This document shows positions 7,997-14,927 of a stretch of DNA of 38,146 nt, piece after piece. The DNA lies in the IMG/VR virus record IMGVR_UViG_2695420714_000020, one strand, 5' to 3'. The position numbers and the translations under genes were made by a program. Each line of letters opens with the position of its first letter. The stretch's first letter is position 1. Origin of the DNA: a virus (taxonomy: Duplodnaviria; Heunggongvirae; Uroviricota; Caudoviricetes). The notes under the pieces were generated by a model that saw only the letters and a list, made by a program, of their open reading frames with translations, was not told where the DNA came from and did not search any database.

Positions 7997-8090
7997 TTTC
8001 GCGGGTTAACAATTCGTGCTCTTAATAATACCAGGCATATCAGGCTGATGAACGTAAAAAAACGTTTTACATCAGTAAGATTATTATATA

Positions 8091-8106
8091 CTGTAAATAT
8101 AAACAG
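8091..8106. promoter_or_regulatory. LexA (SOS) box CTGTAAATATAAACAG
   Basis: Perfect CTGT-N8-ACAG palindrome 45 bp upstream of the 8151 start, overlapping a candidate -10 (TATACT 8087..8092). Confidence 0.7.
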
Positions 8107-8150
8107 TAGTTATACATACAGTATTGCGTGTGGTGTCATAGGAGGAAAGA

Positions 8151-8338
8151 TGCAGGACTATTTTTTGGAGTCTTTGAAGCTCCAGCGCATTGATTTTTTT
8201 CTTAAGCTTGTAGCGGCTAGTGAGTGTAGTGATGAAGAGAAGGGGCTGGCTCTGCAGTGGGTTTCTGAATTGACTGATGAACTCATGGCAAAAATCAGAA
8301 CCCACGAATACAACCGCTCAATGGATGTCATCAGCTGA
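8151..8338 (+). CDS. SOS-inducible small protein, candidate Tum-like antirepressor (62 aa)
   Basis: Strong ribosome-binding site AGGAGG before ATG 8151; downstream of the LexA box; located after gpA as tum is in 186. The ORF-track N-terminal extension (8048) would cover the promoter, so the shorter start is used. Confidence 0.5.
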
Positions 8339-8348
8339 GGTGACTTTT

Positions 8349-8582
8349 ATGCGCATTGAAATAATGATCGATAAAGAGCAGAAGATTAGCCAGTCTACCC
8401 TGGACGCCCTTGAATCCGAGCTTTACCGCAATCTGCGCCCCCTGTATCCCAAAACGGTAATTCGTATCCGTAAAGGTAGCTCTAACGGTGTGGAACTGAC
8501 CGGACTGCAACTGGATGAAGAAAGAAAACAAGTGATGAAAATTATGCAGAAGGTGTGGGAAGACGACAGCTGGCTGCATTAA
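8349..8582 (+). CDS. DinI-family protein (77 aa)
   Basis: MRIEIMIDKEQ...ALESELYRNL...GLQLDEERKQVMKIMQKVWEDDSWL parallels E. coli DinI (MRIEVTIAK...ETWESADDW) in length and motif order. Second gene of the LexA-boxed operon. Confidence 0.7.
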   Translation: MRIEIMIDKEQKISQSTLDALESELYRNLRPLYPKTVIRIRKGSSNGVELTGLQLDEERKQVMKIMQKVWEDDSWLH

Positions 8583-8591
8583 GAAACGTTG

Positions 8592-8619
8592 CCCCCAAGA
8601 GGATTTATCCTGTTGGGGG
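8592..8619 (+). terminator. GC-rich hairpin after the tum/dinI-like operon (CCCCCAAGAGGAT-TT-ATCCTGTTGGGGG)
   Basis: 12 of 13 bp stem immediately after the stop at 8582; weak T-tract afterwards (GAGTTTGGG). Confidence 0.4.
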
Positions 8620-9070
8620 GAGTTTGGGCAACGAGTGAAATGAGGTGTAAGGTGGGCGGTCATTTTGATAAGTGATCGTCCACTTTGTGTCAGAACCTGA
8701 TGTTTGTTGTACATTCGGACGAATAGGCGGCGTTGTTTGCTTTAAAAATAAAACAGGAACACTTTGAGAAAGTGAACAGGTGTATTTATTTGTTGCTGAT
8801 GAATGAGAGTAACTCTAATTTGGATAATTAGCTTGATAATAGGTCAGACGAAAATAATATTCCAGCACACTTTTGGTCGCAACAGGCATTAGTTAATTTT
8901 AAGTGATAAATTTTTATCCATAAATTAACACTAGTGTGTCATCTAGCGAAACCGAATCGCTTTAACTCATAACTTGAAGTTGAATCAGTGGGGTAGCAGT
9001 AGGCATGCCGGAACTGATAAACTGTGCAGAAGGCTAAACATTCATTCACTCGTGAGATAGTAGCTAAATT

Positions 9071-9937
9071 ATGCAAAGAATTATTCCTGATAAAAATTGG
9101 TGGGAAAAAGAGCGTATTAATCGTAAAGCATCATCAATATGCCCATATGCTAGTTCATACAGATGTCCTCGATACTATCAGAGTGTAGTTTTGCTCTCAA
9201 GCATCAATGTGATAGCTGGTATGGCAACTAGGAAAGAAAAAGAGTTGGGTGAATTTTGGGAAAGAACCACTTTCTCATCTTTATGTGATGAAGAAGTCCC
9301 TACAGTTACTACAAAAGAATATGGCGGCCTTGCATCAGTTAGTAATTTTTGCCCAGAAATATCATTTAGATATTTACACTACTACGCCGATTATATGTGT
9401 AAATATGTTGATGAGATAGATCAGGACACTGGCAGGCGTATTGCGGAAAAAGATAATTTAGAAAATGATTGGAAATATACATGGATGTCAGTCAATCCTA
9501 AATTTTATTTAGATTGCGATGTTTTTGAAAGTGTCAAAAATTTCAATGAAGAATTGGCTAGTGATTACTTAAAAAGATTGCACCCAAATATCGTTCAGCA
9601 AATAGATAGAATGAATAATTGCTTGGATAATAATGATCCGGCAGGTGCACTGCACGCAGCCTCTAATATTTTAGAAACTATGGCTAAGGAAATCACTCAA
9701 AACCCGAATGTGGCAAATGAGTCATTGGGTGGTTTTTTTAAACAGTTCGAAAAAATGTCAAAATTACCTAAGAATCTTATTGATGCTGTTAAAGATATTT
9801 ATGATTTACGCAACAAATTACCTACTGCTGGACACGGAAGCTTGAACAAGCCTGAATTGACTATGGTAGAAGCTATAACTATTGCGGCAATGACAAAGGC
9901 GATTTTAGAAATTGAATATCGAAGCAAAGCCATCTAA
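9071..9937 (+). CDS. Orphan accessory protein, 288 aa, unknown function
   Basis: AT-rich ORF in the accessory region after about 430 bp of AT-rich non-coding DNA containing the palindrome GATAAATTTTTATC. No motif recognised; weak ribosome-binding site. Confidence 0.55.
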   Translation: MQRIIPDKNWWEKERINRKASSICPYASSYRCPRYYQSVVLLSSINVIAGMATRKEKELGEFWERTTFSSLCDEEVPTVTTKEYGGLASVSNFCPEISFRYLHYYADYMCKYVDEIDQDTGRRIAEKDNLENDWKYTWMSVNPKFYLDCDVFESVKNFNEELASDYLKRLHPNIVQQIDRMNNCLDNNDPAGALHAASNILETMAKEITQNPNVANESLGGFFKQFEKMSKLPKNLIDAVKDIYDLRNKLPTAGHGSLNKPELTMVEAITIAAMTKAILEIEYRSKAI

Positions 9938-10186
9938 CAAACCAAATTATGTGGTTCAAATTCCCGCTACACTTCTGTGTTGCCGCCAGCGTCTACTTAT
10001 CGCTGTGAGTTCAACGGGTGATGATGCGTTAGAGATCTCTGAATCGATTGAAGTCTAAGGTTGTCAGGGCTGTAACAGCAGCCCTGTGTCATGAATGGAT
10101 TGCATATTAATTGACGAAGAACAGACTAATATCATCGATAGCTGTTTTCAAAAATAGACCAATAACAAACTGAGATGTTATCGTAT

Positions 10187-10840
10187 TCATTTCGATGATT
10201 GATCCAGATGTGTATATAACCATTGAAAGAGTTTTCTAATTTTTGTGATAGTATCTTTTAAATAATTTAAGGAGATTATTATATTATTTTCATTGTTTAA
10301 TGAAAGAGTAGGTGTTTTATCAATGATATTTTTTAAGGCTACAGCTGTGCTCATTTTTTTAATGTCTCCATTAGCATGAACTATGCAATTCCTTACTTTG
10401 TTAAACTCTGTCATGAATTGCCACTCTTGTGACAGGCCAAAGTTTATATCCATTAATTTTGTTAAATATCTTTTTGCTTTGTGGATGCCATCACCATTAA
10501 AATCGGTTACTGATATATTGGTGTTTACAATCCTTTGACATATATTGCAATAGTCGTTTAGGTTGTGCTCTAAGCATGAGTATAAAGATACCAAAGCAGA
10601 TTTATTAAAAATATTTGGTTGTATGTTAACTAAGAAATCATATTGCTCTGAATAATAGTCTTCTAAGTAATTAATATAATCGTCAGGAGCATTCTTTTTT
10701 TCATCTTCATATGCTTTTTTTAATTCCGCTAAGTTAACTCTGTTTTGGCCGCCTGCTCCTAGGATATATTTTTCGAAATCATCAATCTGCGCTTCAAGTG
10801 AATATCTTGATAGCTGTGCGAAAAGTTTGTATTTACTCAT
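10187..10840 (-). CDS. Accessory protein, 217 aa, with candidate HEPN motif (RNCIVH)
   Basis: AT-rich ORF convergent with 9071..9937. Residues 150-155 RNCIVH match the R-x4-6-H HEPN signature in its common RNxxxH form. Confidence 0.55.
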   Translation of the reverse strand: MSKYKLFAQLSRYSLEAQIDDFEKYILGAGGQNRVNLAELKKAYEDEKKNAPDDYINYLEDYYSEQYDFLVNIQPNIFNKSALVSLYSCLEHNLNDYCNICQRIVNTNISVTDFNGDGIHKAKRYLTKLMDINFGLSQEWQFMTEFNKVRNCIVHANGDIKKMSTAVALKNIIDKTPTLSLNNENNIIISLNYLKDTITKIRKLFQWLYTHLDQSSK

Positions 10841-11183
10841 CGGTATGCCATTCCTTTTTAATTATAAACCTTTGGATTAAAAGGTGCTGAAAATAGTAAC
10901 TCATTATTTTTGTTTGTAAAGGGGGTATTGTTTTTACTAGATCAAGATAAAACAATGGGAATATCCGCTTTTCGCTCACAGCGGACTTTCATCTTTGTAA
11001 ACCCGTATGATTAGCTTTTCAGCGGTCATTCAGATACGGATTTACGCTTCCCTTGGCTGTGCATGACTATGACGCATGAGATCGCATGATCGTTAGAGGA
11101 TCGTTTTTGCTGAGGCCAGCCAGAACTGGCGTGCTTTTGCTTATGTCGTGCAGGTGCATGAAAACCACTACATAAAGCGGGCA

Positions 11184-11202
11184 GGCGTGGCGGGGATACG
11201 AT
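11184..11202. other. cos-like cohesive-end site (GGCGTGGCGGGGATACGAT followed by TGCGCGCT)
   Basis: Resembles, from memory, the 19-nt cohesive ends of P2 (GGCGAGGCGGGGAAAGCAC, then TGCGCGCT) and 186 (GGCGTGGCGGGGAAAGCAT). Lies in the region between A and Q where the P2 cos is found. Confidence 0.5.
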
Positions 11203-11229
11203 TGCGCGCTAGGTATAAGTGTGTAAAAT
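11202..11229 (+). promoter_or_regulatory. Candidate promoter for the ATPase-HNH operon (TTGCGC-N16-TAAAAT)
   Basis: Sigma70-like elements about 45 bp upstream of ATG 11271, which has a GAGAGGG ribosome-binding site. Confidence 0.35.
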
Positions 11230-11270
11230 AATTCCAAAATAAATCATCCTAATGAAGTGAGAGGGTAATA

Positions 11271-12920
11271 ATGTTAGTCAAGAAAAATAAAAATTATAGT
11301 TTATATTTTTTAATTACAAATAATCAACAGATATCTGATTCTGGTAATTATATAAAAATAGTCCCATCAAGAAGCGATTGGAATGATTTTGGATATTTGA
11401 GTAGAGTCGAAATATCTATTTTTAATAAAAAAGAGTGTAAGGATATAATTTCACTGAATGGTTATATTGGTTTTTTGAATTCAGAGGAGGAACGAAATGG
11501 AAAAGCAGAACTGATAAGGCGAGTGAAGAAAAAGGAAGAATCTAATTTAAAGGATGAGGGGTTTAATGATTATTTTGTCATGCTTCAGGATATGAATAAT
11601 TATCGAAGACTAGTAAGATTTTTTGGGGTGAATGAATCCAAATATATATTAAATTTCATTAATGATGTTGTTTCTAAGAAAAGTGACGCTAGTGCAGAGA
11701 ATTTGAGGAAAAAAGCAATCTCTTCTGATATCTTTAATAAATCTTTCATTAGAGAGTCTGAGTCGTATTTTACTTTCAAAAATGCAGGAACAGTTCTTTC
11801 CGGTATTCAATATGAGGAGTTGGGTAATTTATCACAGCACATCAAGATTAGCTATTCGAATAAAGTTAATGAAGAAGATGTATCTTATGTTTTTAATTTT
11901 GATCACGAGCATGATTTACCAAAAAGAATTTCCATAATTATAGGCGAGAATGGTGTAGGAAAAAGCCAAACGCTTAGAGAAATCGCATTGGCTGCGATTA
12001 AAGGAAAGGATAATTTGGTGGCTGTAGTTGATTCTAACGGTGTGAGCATTGAAGAACGAATTCAAATTAGTAGGCTCATTGCTTTTTCTCCAACAAATGA
12101 AAGTAAGTGTTCATTTCCAACCGATAAAAGAATAAAATCATTGATATGGTACAAAAGATTGACTTTAAATCGTGAATCAAAATCCAAATTAAACTTGAAT
12201 GATTTAATAGTGCAACTAGCGAGGAGTAACGACGCTATCGGCTATAATCAAAGGTGGAATATATTTGTTGATGCACTGAGTGTTCTAAATAGTAACAACG
12301 ATTTAGTAATCAAATGTAGCGGTGAAAATTCACCATTTGTTAAATTAAATGAGCTTAATTCTCGAGGCGAAGAATCCAGACTATCATTATATTCTGAAAT
12401 TATTCTCTCTGGCGAGCCTTTGAGGCTTGTTGAAAATAAATGTTACCCTTTGAGTAGTGGGGAAATATCGTTTATTAAGTTTTGTGTACAAGTCTGTTTG
12501 TATATTGAGAATGGGACTCTTCTATTAATAGATGAGCCAGAAACACATCTCCATCCTTCATTTATTAATAAATTTATGGCATTGCTTGATAATTTATTAG
12601 AAAAGACAGGCTCTTCAGCTATCATAGCAACGCATTCGGTTTATCTTGTTCGGGAGGTTTTTAAGGAGCAAGTGACAATACTCAGAAGACGAGATGATGG
12701 GGTAATTGTTAGCGAAAAACCGAGATTGAGTACTTTTGGGGCGAATATAGGAAATATCTCATATTTTGTTTTCGGTGAGAGTGAACCAACTCAAATTTTA
12801 AATAAAGTAAAAAATAATATAATTGCAAAGAATATGTCTTGGGATGATGTTGAATCTAAATATAGCGAGGACTTATCACTTAATGTATTAACTGCGTTGA
12901 GAAATGAAATAGGTAATTGA
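11271..12920 (+). CDS. ABC-type ATPase with ~215-aa N-terminal extension (candidate defense ATPase, PtuA-like)
   Basis: 549 aa. Walker A GENGVGKS (aa 225-232), ABC signature LSSGE (394-398), Walker B LLLIDEPE (417-424), H-loop ATHS (453-456). N-terminal 215 aa have no recognisable motif. AT-rich. Confidence 0.7.
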   Translation: MLVKKNKNYSLYFLITNNQQISDSGNYIKIVPSRSDWNDFGYLSRVEISIFNKKECKDIISLNGYIGFLNSEEERNGKAELIRRVKKKEESNLKDEGFNDYFVMLQDMNNYRRLVRFFGVNESKYILNFINDVVSKKSDASAENLRKKAISSDIFNKSFIRESESYFTFKNAGTVLSGIQYEELGNLSQHIKISYSNKVNEEDVSYVFNFDHEHDLPKRISIIIGENGVGKSQTLREIALAAIKGKDNLVAVVDSNGVSIEERIQISRLIAFSPTNESKCSFPTDKRIKSLIWYKRLTLNRESKSKLNLNDLIVQLARSNDAIGYNQRWNIFVDALSVLNSNNDLVIKCSGENSPFVKLNELNSRGEESRLSLYSEIILSGEPLRLVENKCYPLSSGEISFIKFCVQVCLYIENGTLLLIDEPETHLHPSFINKFMALLDNLLEKTGSSAIIATHSVYLVREVFKEQVTILRRRDDGVIVSEKPRLSTFGANIGNISYFVFGESEPTQILNKVKNNIIAKNMSWDDVESKYSEDLSLNVLTALRNEIGN

Positions 12921-12921
12921 A

Positions 12922-13785
12922 ATGAATAAATTAAAAAGACCTGTTTTTAAAGATTATTCTGCATTTAAAAAACTATCTGCAAATAAGAGATTAAAACATC
13001 ATTCTGTTCTGAATGGACAGGATACATTTATACTTAATGCATATAGATCGTACATAAAGAATAAAGGATATCTTAATGTCAATTCTTGTGGCGTATTGAG
13101 TAACAATATTGCTGAAGCTTTGAAATATTATTATAACAATCCCGCAAAGTGTTTATCTATAATTGATGATATAAGAGCAGCTAATTCTAACTCTCTATGT
13201 CCAATGTGTGGTTCAATGCATAGCGGGACTTTGGATCATGTTTTACCCAAGGAAAACTATCCAGAATTTTCTTTATTCACTAAGAATTTGGTTCCTGCTT
13301 GCAAATGTAATACTTTCAAAAGTACTACTATAGCTAATTCTGCAGGCCATCGGATGCTGCATCCATATTTTGATAATATATTAAAACAAAGATTAATATG
13401 TGCTAATTTTTCTAAATTAGGGCGAACACCTACAATTGATGTAAAAATCATAATTGACCCAATGTCACCAGAATATAACAATGTTAAGTATCATCTTGAT
13501 AATGTTGTTATCAAGAATAATATTAAGGGGTATTTGTCTGAACAATGGGAGTCGTTTTACTTATATCCTGAGCTTGTTATTAGAGGACTGAATAAGAGTC
13601 TTTCTACTTATAGCGATGTATATGAGTTGTTGACTCGCGAGTTGTTGCTGTTGGATGAAAAACATAAAGGTAAAAATAATTGGAATTCGGTTTTTGTAGC
13701 TGGGTTAATTCGACCTGATGTGATTAGGTGGATACTCTGTGAATTACATTTAGGTAACAGAAGTCCAGACGGTCGTCTCATATGA
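12922..13785 (+). CDS. HNH-motif nuclease (candidate effector, PtuB-like)
   Basis: 287 aa. CPMCGSMHSGTLDHVLPKENYPEFSLFTKNLVPACKCN (CxxC...DH...N...CxC, aa 93-130). ATG is 1 nt after the ATPase stop, so the two genes are coupled. Confidence 0.65.
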   Translation: MNKLKRPVFKDYSAFKKLSANKRLKHHSVLNGQDTFILNAYRSYIKNKGYLNVNSCGVLSNNIAEALKYYYNNPAKCLSIIDDIRAANSNSLCPMCGSMHSGTLDHVLPKENYPEFSLFTKNLVPACKCNTFKSTTIANSAGHRMLHPYFDNILKQRLICANFSKLGRTPTIDVKIIIDPMSPEYNNVKYHLDNVVIKNNIKGYLSEQWESFYLYPELVIRGLNKSLSTYSDVYELLTRELLLLDEKHKGKNNWNSVFVAGLIRPDVIRWILCELHLGNRSPDGRLI

Positions 13786-13795
13786 TTTTTTGCAT

Positions 13796-13821
13796 CTTCA
13801 GCGTGTATCTGCACGCTGAAG
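13796..13821. other. Perfect 10-bp inverted repeat CTTCAGCGTG-N6-CACGCTGAAG between the HNH gene and portal gene
   Basis: Perfect stem with 6-nt loop between convergent gene ends; no U-tract on either strand, so not a canonical intrinsic terminator. Confidence 0.4.
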
Positions 13822-13892
13822 AAATTCATAAAAACTGCTGGCTATTAATAACTTTTTTTAGTTGTGTTAAAGAACCTCATTTAGTTATTACG

Positions 13893-14927
13893 TTAAGTAG
13901 CTAGTTTATAACTATCAAATTTAACAATGTTCTCACTTACCAATTTATTTATTTCCATCATTCTTTTTTGTAACGGTATTAACTCGTTACGTACAAACAC
14001 CAGGCTCGCCTTCTCCACATCCCCAAACCCCCCGACATTATTAGGCATAATCCCCATCATTTGCGGTGGCACACGATGCGCCGCCATCATGTCATCCCGG
14101 CTCACGTTCTTGATGTTCAGAAACTCATCCTTCGCCGCGACTTCTGACAACGGGATGATCTGAAGCCCGTCCTTTTTGCCGTTAGGCGAGTACATAAACA
14201 GATTGCGGAAGTTACCTGGTCCTTTGGCGCTTTTCATCGCATTGCGGAGGTTGTTCACATCCTCCTGGTTTTGCGCGGCATCGGTCATGTACATGATGAA
14301 GCCTGCATGACTGCCGTTAATGTAATACTTTCGGCGGAACAGCGTGGCGGACTCGTTGAGCAGGGCTGACGGAATGGCAGAAAGGTAACCTGGCAGGCCG
14401 TAGATCTCCTGGTTGATGTCCGGTTCCATCAGATGAAAAATGCTGCCTTTCGTGAACTGATACGGCTGGGTTGTCATACCGTATTGCACAAACCAGTAGG
14501 TATCCAGGTCTAACCCGCGTCGGGTGTATTTTGCCAGAGCAGGCTCAAGAGCGATGACCTCTCCGAACCGGTTTGTGCGTTTCTCCAGGTAAGCGTTACC
14601 AAATACCAGATAATCCTGCACAAAACGTGAAAAAGCCTGCTGGCTGAGCAGCGGGTGAGGGATGTAGGTACTGGTCAGAATGTTGCACTTTACTGCAATC
14701 GGGGAGCTATGATGTACGGCAGCGCGGAAGGTTCGCGCCAGTCCGTCAAAACTCACTGGCGGCTCATACCAGCGATCTGTCTGTACGCATTCCACATAGT
14801 CCAGTAGTTCACGGCGGTCCAGAACCGGAACGGGATCGCCGAAGCTGAATGCTTCGGCTGAAGCCTGGTTTTTATGCTGGATCTGTTTCGTCGACGCAGC
14901 GCGGTTTTTCTTAATCTTTCCCATCAA
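13893..14927 (-). CDS. Q: Portal protein gpQ
   Basis: 344 aa, identical in length to P2 Q; start overlaps the terminase stop; leftward late operon. Confidence 0.9.
   Translation of the reverse strand: MMGKIKKNRAASTKQIQHKNQASAEAFSFGDPVPVLDRRELLDYVECVQTDRWYEPPVSFDGLARTFRAAVHHSSPIAVKCNILTSTYIPHPLLSQQAFSRFVQDYLVFGNAYLEKRTNRFGEVIALEPALAKYTRRGLDLDTYWFVQYGMTTQPYQFTKGSIFHLMEPDINQEIYGLPGYLSAIPSALLNESATLFRRKYYINGSHAGFIMYMTDAAQNQEDVNNLRNAMKSAKGPGNFRNLFMYSPNGKKDGLQIIPLSEVAAKDEFLNIKNVSRDDMMAAHRVPPQMMGIMPNNVGGFGDVEKASLVFVRNELIPLQKRMMEINKLVSENIVKFDSYKLAT

Follow-up and report, generated by a model that had tools for sequence, protein, structure and literature searches.

A stand-alone HEPN-superfamily gene as candidate anti-phage cargo of a P2-like Escherichia coli prophage

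The locus and its prophage setting

The IMG/VR virus record IMGVR_UViG_2695420714_000020, a stretch of 38,146 nucleotides that is called the window here, is a P2-like E. coli prophage. Within it we analyzed computationally a minus-strand gene that encodes a protein of 217 amino acids (aa), which a preliminary description, made from the letters alone, had read as single-gene cargo of the HEPN type. As far as computation goes, that reading is supported. The gene and the parts of its predicted active site are as follows.

10187..10840, minus strand: coding sequence (CDS) of 217 aa for a stand-alone HEPN-superfamily protein, in the branch next to RiboL-PSP-HEPN
10376..10393, minus strand: codons of the predicted catalytic Rx4H motif, R150-N-C-I-V-H155, with which helix 138-156 ends C-terminally; assigned from conservation and from its helix position in the AlphaFold2 (AF2) model against a published description (PMC3710099)
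10568..10570, minus strand: codon of E91, kept in 97% of 142 representatives; it lies in the long helix 53-105 and is a candidate for the acidic residue of HEPN helix 2

The open reading frame (ORF) starts with ATG, according to both the ORF list and our reading of the sequence, and the RNCIVH motif occupies residues 150-155 (codons 10393..10376), as first described. Over 8900-11270, the sequence is 100% identical to NZ_CP148579; there, the prophage adjoins rcdA/ybjJ and the annotated order is integrase, CI, further genes, replication endonuclease (gpA), DinI-like, four cargo genes, portal and terminase. Thus, the 217-aa gene lies between the replication endonuclease and DinI-like genes on one side and the portal gene on the other. 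It is convergent with the plus-strand gene 9071..9937, which agrees with the preliminary description, and divergent from the plus-strand gene 11271..12920. It had also been called AT-rich, and the GC content is indeed 0.32–0.33 across 10001-11000, compared with 0.52–0.60 in the phage core. This trough belongs to an AT-rich cargo island of GC 0.31–0.42 at about 8000-14000.

The cos-proximal gpA-gpQ locus, which is the site of P2 old and tin, is a known defence hotspot (Rousset et al., PMC9122126), and the 217-aa gene occupies it, as had been proposed from its position. Table S5A of the same study contains the same arrangement (WP_000049685 with WP_000960488 and WP_024199288), labelled ‘hypothetical’ and left untested there (PMC9122126). 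A P2-hotspot ‘Putative HEPN’ that was tested in that study (pFR103, from E. coli S88) was considered as the same protein and rejected, being a different one.

Conservation of the motif and the family

The RNCIVH motif had been presented as a HEPN signature, but its presence alone is within chance. Among 20,000 shuffles of the 217-aa protein, R-x4-6-H is present in 27.7% and RNxxxH in 1.0%. The motif is therefore significant because of its conservation, not because of its mere presence.

A word-indexed search found close homologues of 63–100% identity in Escherichia, Enterobacter, Salmonella, Pantoea, Morganella, Dickeya and Klebsiella, together with a Bacillus relative. Metagenomic relatives with identities as low as 18% came from a profile search. 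The only invariant columns of the 27-sequence alignment are C98, R150, N151, C152 and H155, and the RNxxxH motif is invariant in our alignments A2 and A4. With phmmer against 1.84 billion representatives, each standing for a cluster at 50% identity, 2123 clusters were matched at E<=1e-3 and 375 at E<=1e-10. Hence the earlier word ‘orphan’ holds for a gene that stands alone in its locus but not for the family.

Conservation was then counted in 142 representatives of 150 aa or more with pairwise identities of at most 50%. R150 is kept in 100%, N151 and H155 in 99%, E91 and W140 in 97%, C98 in 95%, Y125 in 94%, S81 in 92% and G158 in 90%. The preliminary description had made its case depend on the motif arginine and histidine being shared by homologues, and both are nearly universal. 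The codons of the two cysteines are 10547-10549 for C98 and 10385-10387 for C152, the latter inside the catalytic RNCxxH motif.

The family has a median length of 221 aa (5–95% range, 173–256), and its longer, N-terminally extended members carry no recognisable additional domain. A genome scan for exact KVRNCIVH recovered 24 loci, which come from Cyanobacteria, Planctomycetes, Firmicutes, Gammaproteobacteria, Chloroflexi, Ignavibacteria, Verrucomicrobia, Acidobacteria, Nitrospirae and a bacterium of the candidate phyla radiation (CPR).

Assignment to the HEPN superfamily

Active HEPN proteins are characterized by metal-independent endoribonuclease activity. Their Rx4-6H signature usually has a polar residue (N, D or H) after the arginine, and R150-N151...H155 follows this pattern. 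In the AF2 model, helices are predicted at 53-105, 138-156 and 191-215, with the motif at the C-terminal end of the second, and an insert at 106-137 contains a further helix at 118-130. This predicted layout and the placement of the motif fit the HEPN description in PMC3710099, from which we infer an active-site role for E91. Many HEPN families have such a conserved acidic residue of helix 2 close to the active site.

Profile searches with the 217-aa protein itself gave no Pfam hit (E<=1) and no NCBIfam hit, and its match to the PADLOC model RTasHEPN (E 1.1e-5) covers residues 122-164, that is, the conserved insert and the catalytic helix. PADLOC 2.0 reported this 43-residue partial match only and assigned no system. 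Among the relatives, PF18735 (HEPN_RiboL-PSP) is the only recurrent Pfam family, found in 8 of 27 and in 17 of 100 with a best value of 3e-7, and its matches fall on the helix-3/motif region. The relatives with PF18735 matches that were listed individually score 16.5–18.7 bits, under the gathering cut-off of 28.4 bits.

PF18735 was defined computationally by Anantharaman et al. in 2013 as a predicted active (Rx4-6H) family, distantly related to AbiD/AbiF and named for its endoRNase L-PSP fusions and ParB operons (PMC3710099). It is the closest family by sequence, although the 217-aa protein itself scores below its threshold, and neither the L-PSP fusion nor the ParB operon is seen in the 31 loci surveyed below or in the longer family members. 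Our literature search found no experimental characterisation of PF18735; matches to ‘RiboL’ were rejected as mentions of the RiboLock reagent. In the databases, the RefSeq name is hypothetical, and UniProt/UniRef names the 98–100% identical proteins ‘RiboL-PSP-HEPN domain-containing protein’.

Neither single-sequence nor family-profile searches found a relative of solved structure by sequence. Foldseek against PDB and BFVD gave nothing informative except one uncharacterised metagenomic phage protein. From the profiles, the public names, the conservation and the predicted fold together, the 217-aa protein is very probably a HEPN-superfamily member with an intact catalytic set, and it sits in a branch that is adjacent to PF18735 and poorly covered by it.

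Solo architecture and the upstream region

Partners were sought in 31 loci from more than 10 phyla by all-against-all BLASTP clustering of the ORFs of at least 70 aa within 3 kb. No neighbour family recurs among these loci save UmuD-like S24 peptidases, which appear in 3 prophage or transposon loci. A conserved protein partner was rejected: the adjacent same-strand ORFs are mutually unrelated, and the 20 scanned with Pfam and PADLOC are housekeeping or without match. Genes for MNT nucleotidyltransferases, reverse transcriptases and ParB are absent as neighbours from the window and the surveyed loci.

Judging from sequence identity in five taxa, the gene and about 170 nt upstream behave as a cassette. 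The identity is 0.70–0.84 in the CDS, 0.41–0.59 in this upstream region and 0.19–0.39 in the farther flank. The upstream region contains the following candidate features.

10852-10855, minus strand: AGGA, a Shine-Dalgarno candidate
10893..10920, minus strand: TTTACA-16-TACTAT, a sigma-70-like promoter candidate from a consensus scan, about 53 nt upstream of the ATG
10964..10985, minus strand: hairpin TCCGCT-N10-AGCGGA at the upstream edge of the cassette
10833..10979, minus strand: ORF of 48 aa with a GTG start, overlapping the 217-aa gene at its start codon (ATGA)

In the five-taxon alignment, the best-conserved part of the upstream region is the Shine-Dalgarno candidate with the start region just before the ATG. 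The number of promoter-like sites in the region is not above that in shuffles. The hairpin is possibly an insulating terminator or an operator. The same hairpin occurs without the 217-aa gene, beside an IS5 fragment, in another prophage (L053:3980-4010), which suggests a remnant of a deleted cassette copy.

This upstream region is where an antitoxin would be encoded if the gene were instead the toxin of a toxin–antitoxin (TA) or addiction module, neutralized by a small RNA or a short peptide in analogy with AbiF. That reading is rather unlikely. It draws on the upstream region being more conserved than the distal flank, on the hairpin and the overlapping 48-aa ORF within it, and on the distant relation of RiboL-PSP-HEPN to AbiD/AbiF, since an AbiF system is reported to be RNA-regulated (PMC12373285).

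However, the upstream region is far less conserved than the CDS. The 48-aa ORF is interrupted by stops or frame shifts in the Salmonella, Morganella, Pantoea and Enterobacter copies; it was rejected as an antitoxin and is unlikely to be a gene. Enterobacter retains the hairpin, which is weak in Salmonella and absent from the Pantoea copy. Unlike type III (RNA antitoxin) TA systems, the locus has no tandem repeats near the gene, no Rfam family upstream and one short hairpin that is inconsistently kept. No small conserved neighbour emerged from the 31 loci, as screened for ORFs of at least 70 aa only.

Mobility of the cassette and pairing in E. coli

The cassette is found in varied accessory slots. 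In a P2-like prophage of Morganella it is flanked by the tail-sheath and tail-fibre-assembly genes, which we take to be the P2 Z/fun site. In lambdoid prophages of Salmonella and Enterobacter it sits at the tail-fibre end. It is also found in an integrative and conjugative element in Pantoea and elsewhere as cargo of a Tn3-family transposon. The site in a Bacillus phage is beside the small terminase gene, and distant relatives are found on plasmids.

These settings bear on a non-defence role, in which a HEPN-like protein would serve the element's own biology in RNA processing, counter-defence or regulation, or would be a catalytically unrelated helical bundle. We hold this improbable. The variable accessory slots belong to unrelated mobile elements and have no fixed position relative to the phage modules, the gene is AT-rich foreign cargo among further defence genes, and an active HEPN site would predict the near-total conservation of E, R, N and H that is seen in more than 10 phyla.

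In the E. coli P2-like prophages, the 217-aa gene stays paired with the 288-aa AbiJ-like gene at 9071..9937, and the third module is swapped. It is a PDC-M01/Septu-like pair of ATPase and HNH genes in the window, a smaller ATPase and HNH pair in CP025916 and a single P-loop NTPase gene in O25b:H4. The prophage has three stacked candidate defence modules, the 217-aa gene, the AbiJ-like gene and the Septu-like pair, and illustrates modular swapping within the hotspot.

The pairing could also mean a two-gene system of the 217-aa and 288-aa proteins, such as a HEPN sensor and effector pair. In all nine complete E. coli genomes with the 217-aa gene, the 288-aa gene is its neighbour and only the third module differs. 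In Bacillus, a genuine AbiJ gene is followed on its own strand, after 44 nt, by the homologue P0033. Yet the two genes in the window are convergent, 249 nt apart and presumably served by separate promoters. The E. coli copies are 98.8–100% identical, so they share recent ancestry and count as one event.

Moreover, 29 of the 31 loci of the 217-aa family have no AbiJ-like neighbour, and the two exceptions are the window and the Bacillus locus. Other genes accompany the 288-aa family in lambdoid prophages of E. coli and in Salmonella, Pectobacterium and Serratia; in the last two, the convergent 213-aa and 164-aa proteins have no homology to the 217-aa protein. Profile–profile comparison with hhalign finds no relation between the 217-aa and 288-aa (Abi_C) families either. 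Because the E. coli pairs are near-identical and the neighbours differ elsewhere, we treat the two genes as separate stacked modules, and a joint system seems hardly probable.

Comparison with known HEPN systems

By logic, the closest known system is HepS (STM14_3211) of the Salmonella prophage Gifsy-1, a 218-aa solo HEPN protein of abortive infection (PDB 9oik). It is a tRNA anticodon nuclease without an inhibitory partner and is activated by a phage tail-tip protein (PMC13043305). The 217-aa protein shares with it the solo HEPN architecture, the lack of a partner or inhibitor and the location in prophage accessory regions. However, the two have no sequence relation, and the motif of the 217-aa protein is displaced by 50 residues towards the C-terminus.

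In structure, the HepT toxins of the HepT/MntA type VII TA systems (PDB 5yep, 7ae2 and 8xdj) appear to be nearest, at 6–10% identity. These toxins are about 130–140 aa and are neutralised by an adjacent MNT nucleotidyltransferase, whereas the 217-aa protein is 80 aa longer and has no MNT gene beside it or in any of the surveyed loci. The only match in a defence database is RTasHEPN (PADLOC PDLC03820, filed under DRT), which spans 43 of the 217 residues, and no reverse transcriptase gene lies near the 217-aa gene. One may conjecture a link to the HEPN-like neighbour cluster of the UG22 reverse transcriptases (PMC9226505).

AbiD/AbiF (Abi_2), AbiJ (Abi_C), ApeA and BxaP (DUF4145) follow the same one-protein HEPN logic of abortive infection and are often borne by prophages or plasmids, but the 217-aa protein matches none of their Pfam or PADLOC models. 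For Abi_2 in particular, neither this protein nor 127 relatives gave a match, and there is no PADLOC AbiD/AbiF match. We found no paper in which a member of the 217-aa family was tested.

Hence, the gene is a known type of cargo, a HEPN nuclease as single-gene prophage cargo. It is unsurprising to specialists and is a clean, well-supported candidate for a defence screen. As it stands, an expected type of cargo is confirmed and no new principle is added.

Proposed function

The 217-aa protein is probably an autonomous single-domain HEPN ribonuclease that acts as an anti-phage accessory gene (moron) of the P2-like prophage. This proposal builds on the conserved E91/R150/N151/H155 set, the solo architecture and the mobile accessory context, which we take as established, and on the fold as modelled.

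In the mechanism that we propose, the gene would be transcribed constitutively in the lysogen from its own promoter, by analogy with HepS. The protein would form a dimer or higher oligomer. In HEPN enzymes, the RNase site is metal-independent and composite, built from the paired Rx4-6H motifs of two protomers (PMC13043305), and the Rx4H motifs could be paired likewise here. Again as in HepS, the resting oligomer would be catalytically silent without an antitoxin until a cue from an infecting phage switches the enzyme on. The active enzyme might then cleave cellular RNA, either tRNA or mRNA, so that translation stops and the infection is aborted, an outcome that HepS also suggests. The lysogen population and its P2 prophage would in this way be protected from competing phages.

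The family has a specific insert, D113-x2-G-x-G-I-x-R/K-A-x2-Y-L-x-K128 (D113, G116, G118, I119, K/R121, Y125 and K128), with W140. Any specific function is most obviously to be sought in the insert, in W140 and in the near-invariant C98 and C152. More tentatively, the family may be a widespread unrecognised class of self-contained sensor–effector HEPN immunity proteins, parallel to HepS but independently evolved and with a trigger of its own, in which the insert and the cysteine pair might serve as a switch or an RNA-recognition element. Such a class would comprise at least 2123 clusters at 50% identity with an invariant (K)VRNC(I)VH core, from Proteobacteria, Firmicutes, Cyanobacteria, Planctomycetes, Chloroflexi, Nitrospirae, CPR bacteria and others.

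If the anti-phage function is true, a family of more than 2000 sequence clusters, whose RefSeq label is now ‘hypothetical’, would become a defined single-gene immunity system. It would also provide a second, independent antitoxin-free solo HEPN nuclease, in which silencing and sensing can be compared with HepS. The P2 hotspot setting is a ready experimental system with the native promoter, an E. coli host and the standard coliphage panels.

Neighbouring modules and hotspot elements

The two modules that flank the 217-aa gene are listed below.

9071..9937, plus strand: AbiJ-like protein of 288 aa, Cys-rich in its N-domain and with an Abi_C/HEPN domain at the C-terminus, a separate module (Pfam Abi_C 1.7e-3; BLASTP 1e-7 to the Bacillus AbiJ C-terminus; alignment A5)
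11271..13785, plus strand: Septu-like pair by PADLOC, a separate module, made up of an AAA_21 ATPase of 549 aa (11271..12920) and an HNH protein of 287 aa (12922..13785)

The C-terminal Abi_C match of the 288-aa protein is weak, with R247, H255 and G256 conserved. Its N-terminal domain has the strongly conserved motifs CPYAN..CPRYY, SNFCPE and DEID, and some Pseudomonas relatives have another domain in place of the C-terminal one. The family, annotated as hypothetical only, is widely distributed among Gammaproteobacteria, and PADLOC gives a weak PDC-S32 match.

In a Salmonella prophage (L045:2681-3379), the 288-aa homologue comes directly after a DUF4145 protein and a ‘GT4-conflict’ glycosyltransferase. 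DUF4145 is the HEPN-related domain of the BxaP defence protein, and HEPN-type genes are thus stacked in the accessory region of this prophage too. In lambdoid prophages of several E. coli strains, such as that of EC261 (L002:5173-6039), the annotation splits the 288-aa gene into two shorter CDSs of 114 and 150 aa, and the 288-aa protein cluster has many versions of 150 aa. This suggests frequent frameshifted or truncated copies.

The PADLOC matches of the Septu-like pair are PDC-M01A (2.4e-55), PtuA (1e-31) and PDC-M01B (8.2e-34). In sister prophages (L019 and L020), its slot holds a smaller ATPase and HNH pair or a single P-loop NTPase.

An unannotated non-coding element of about 150–220 nt, at about 11060..11210 in the window, is present in 1216 of 5426 complete E. 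coli genomes. It comes directly after the DinI-like gene in typical P2-like prophages (L054), and in the window and in a DarTG-carrying prophage (L053) it lies mid-hotspot after an inserted module. The element may be a cargo-slot boundary or a recombination anchor for module swapping.
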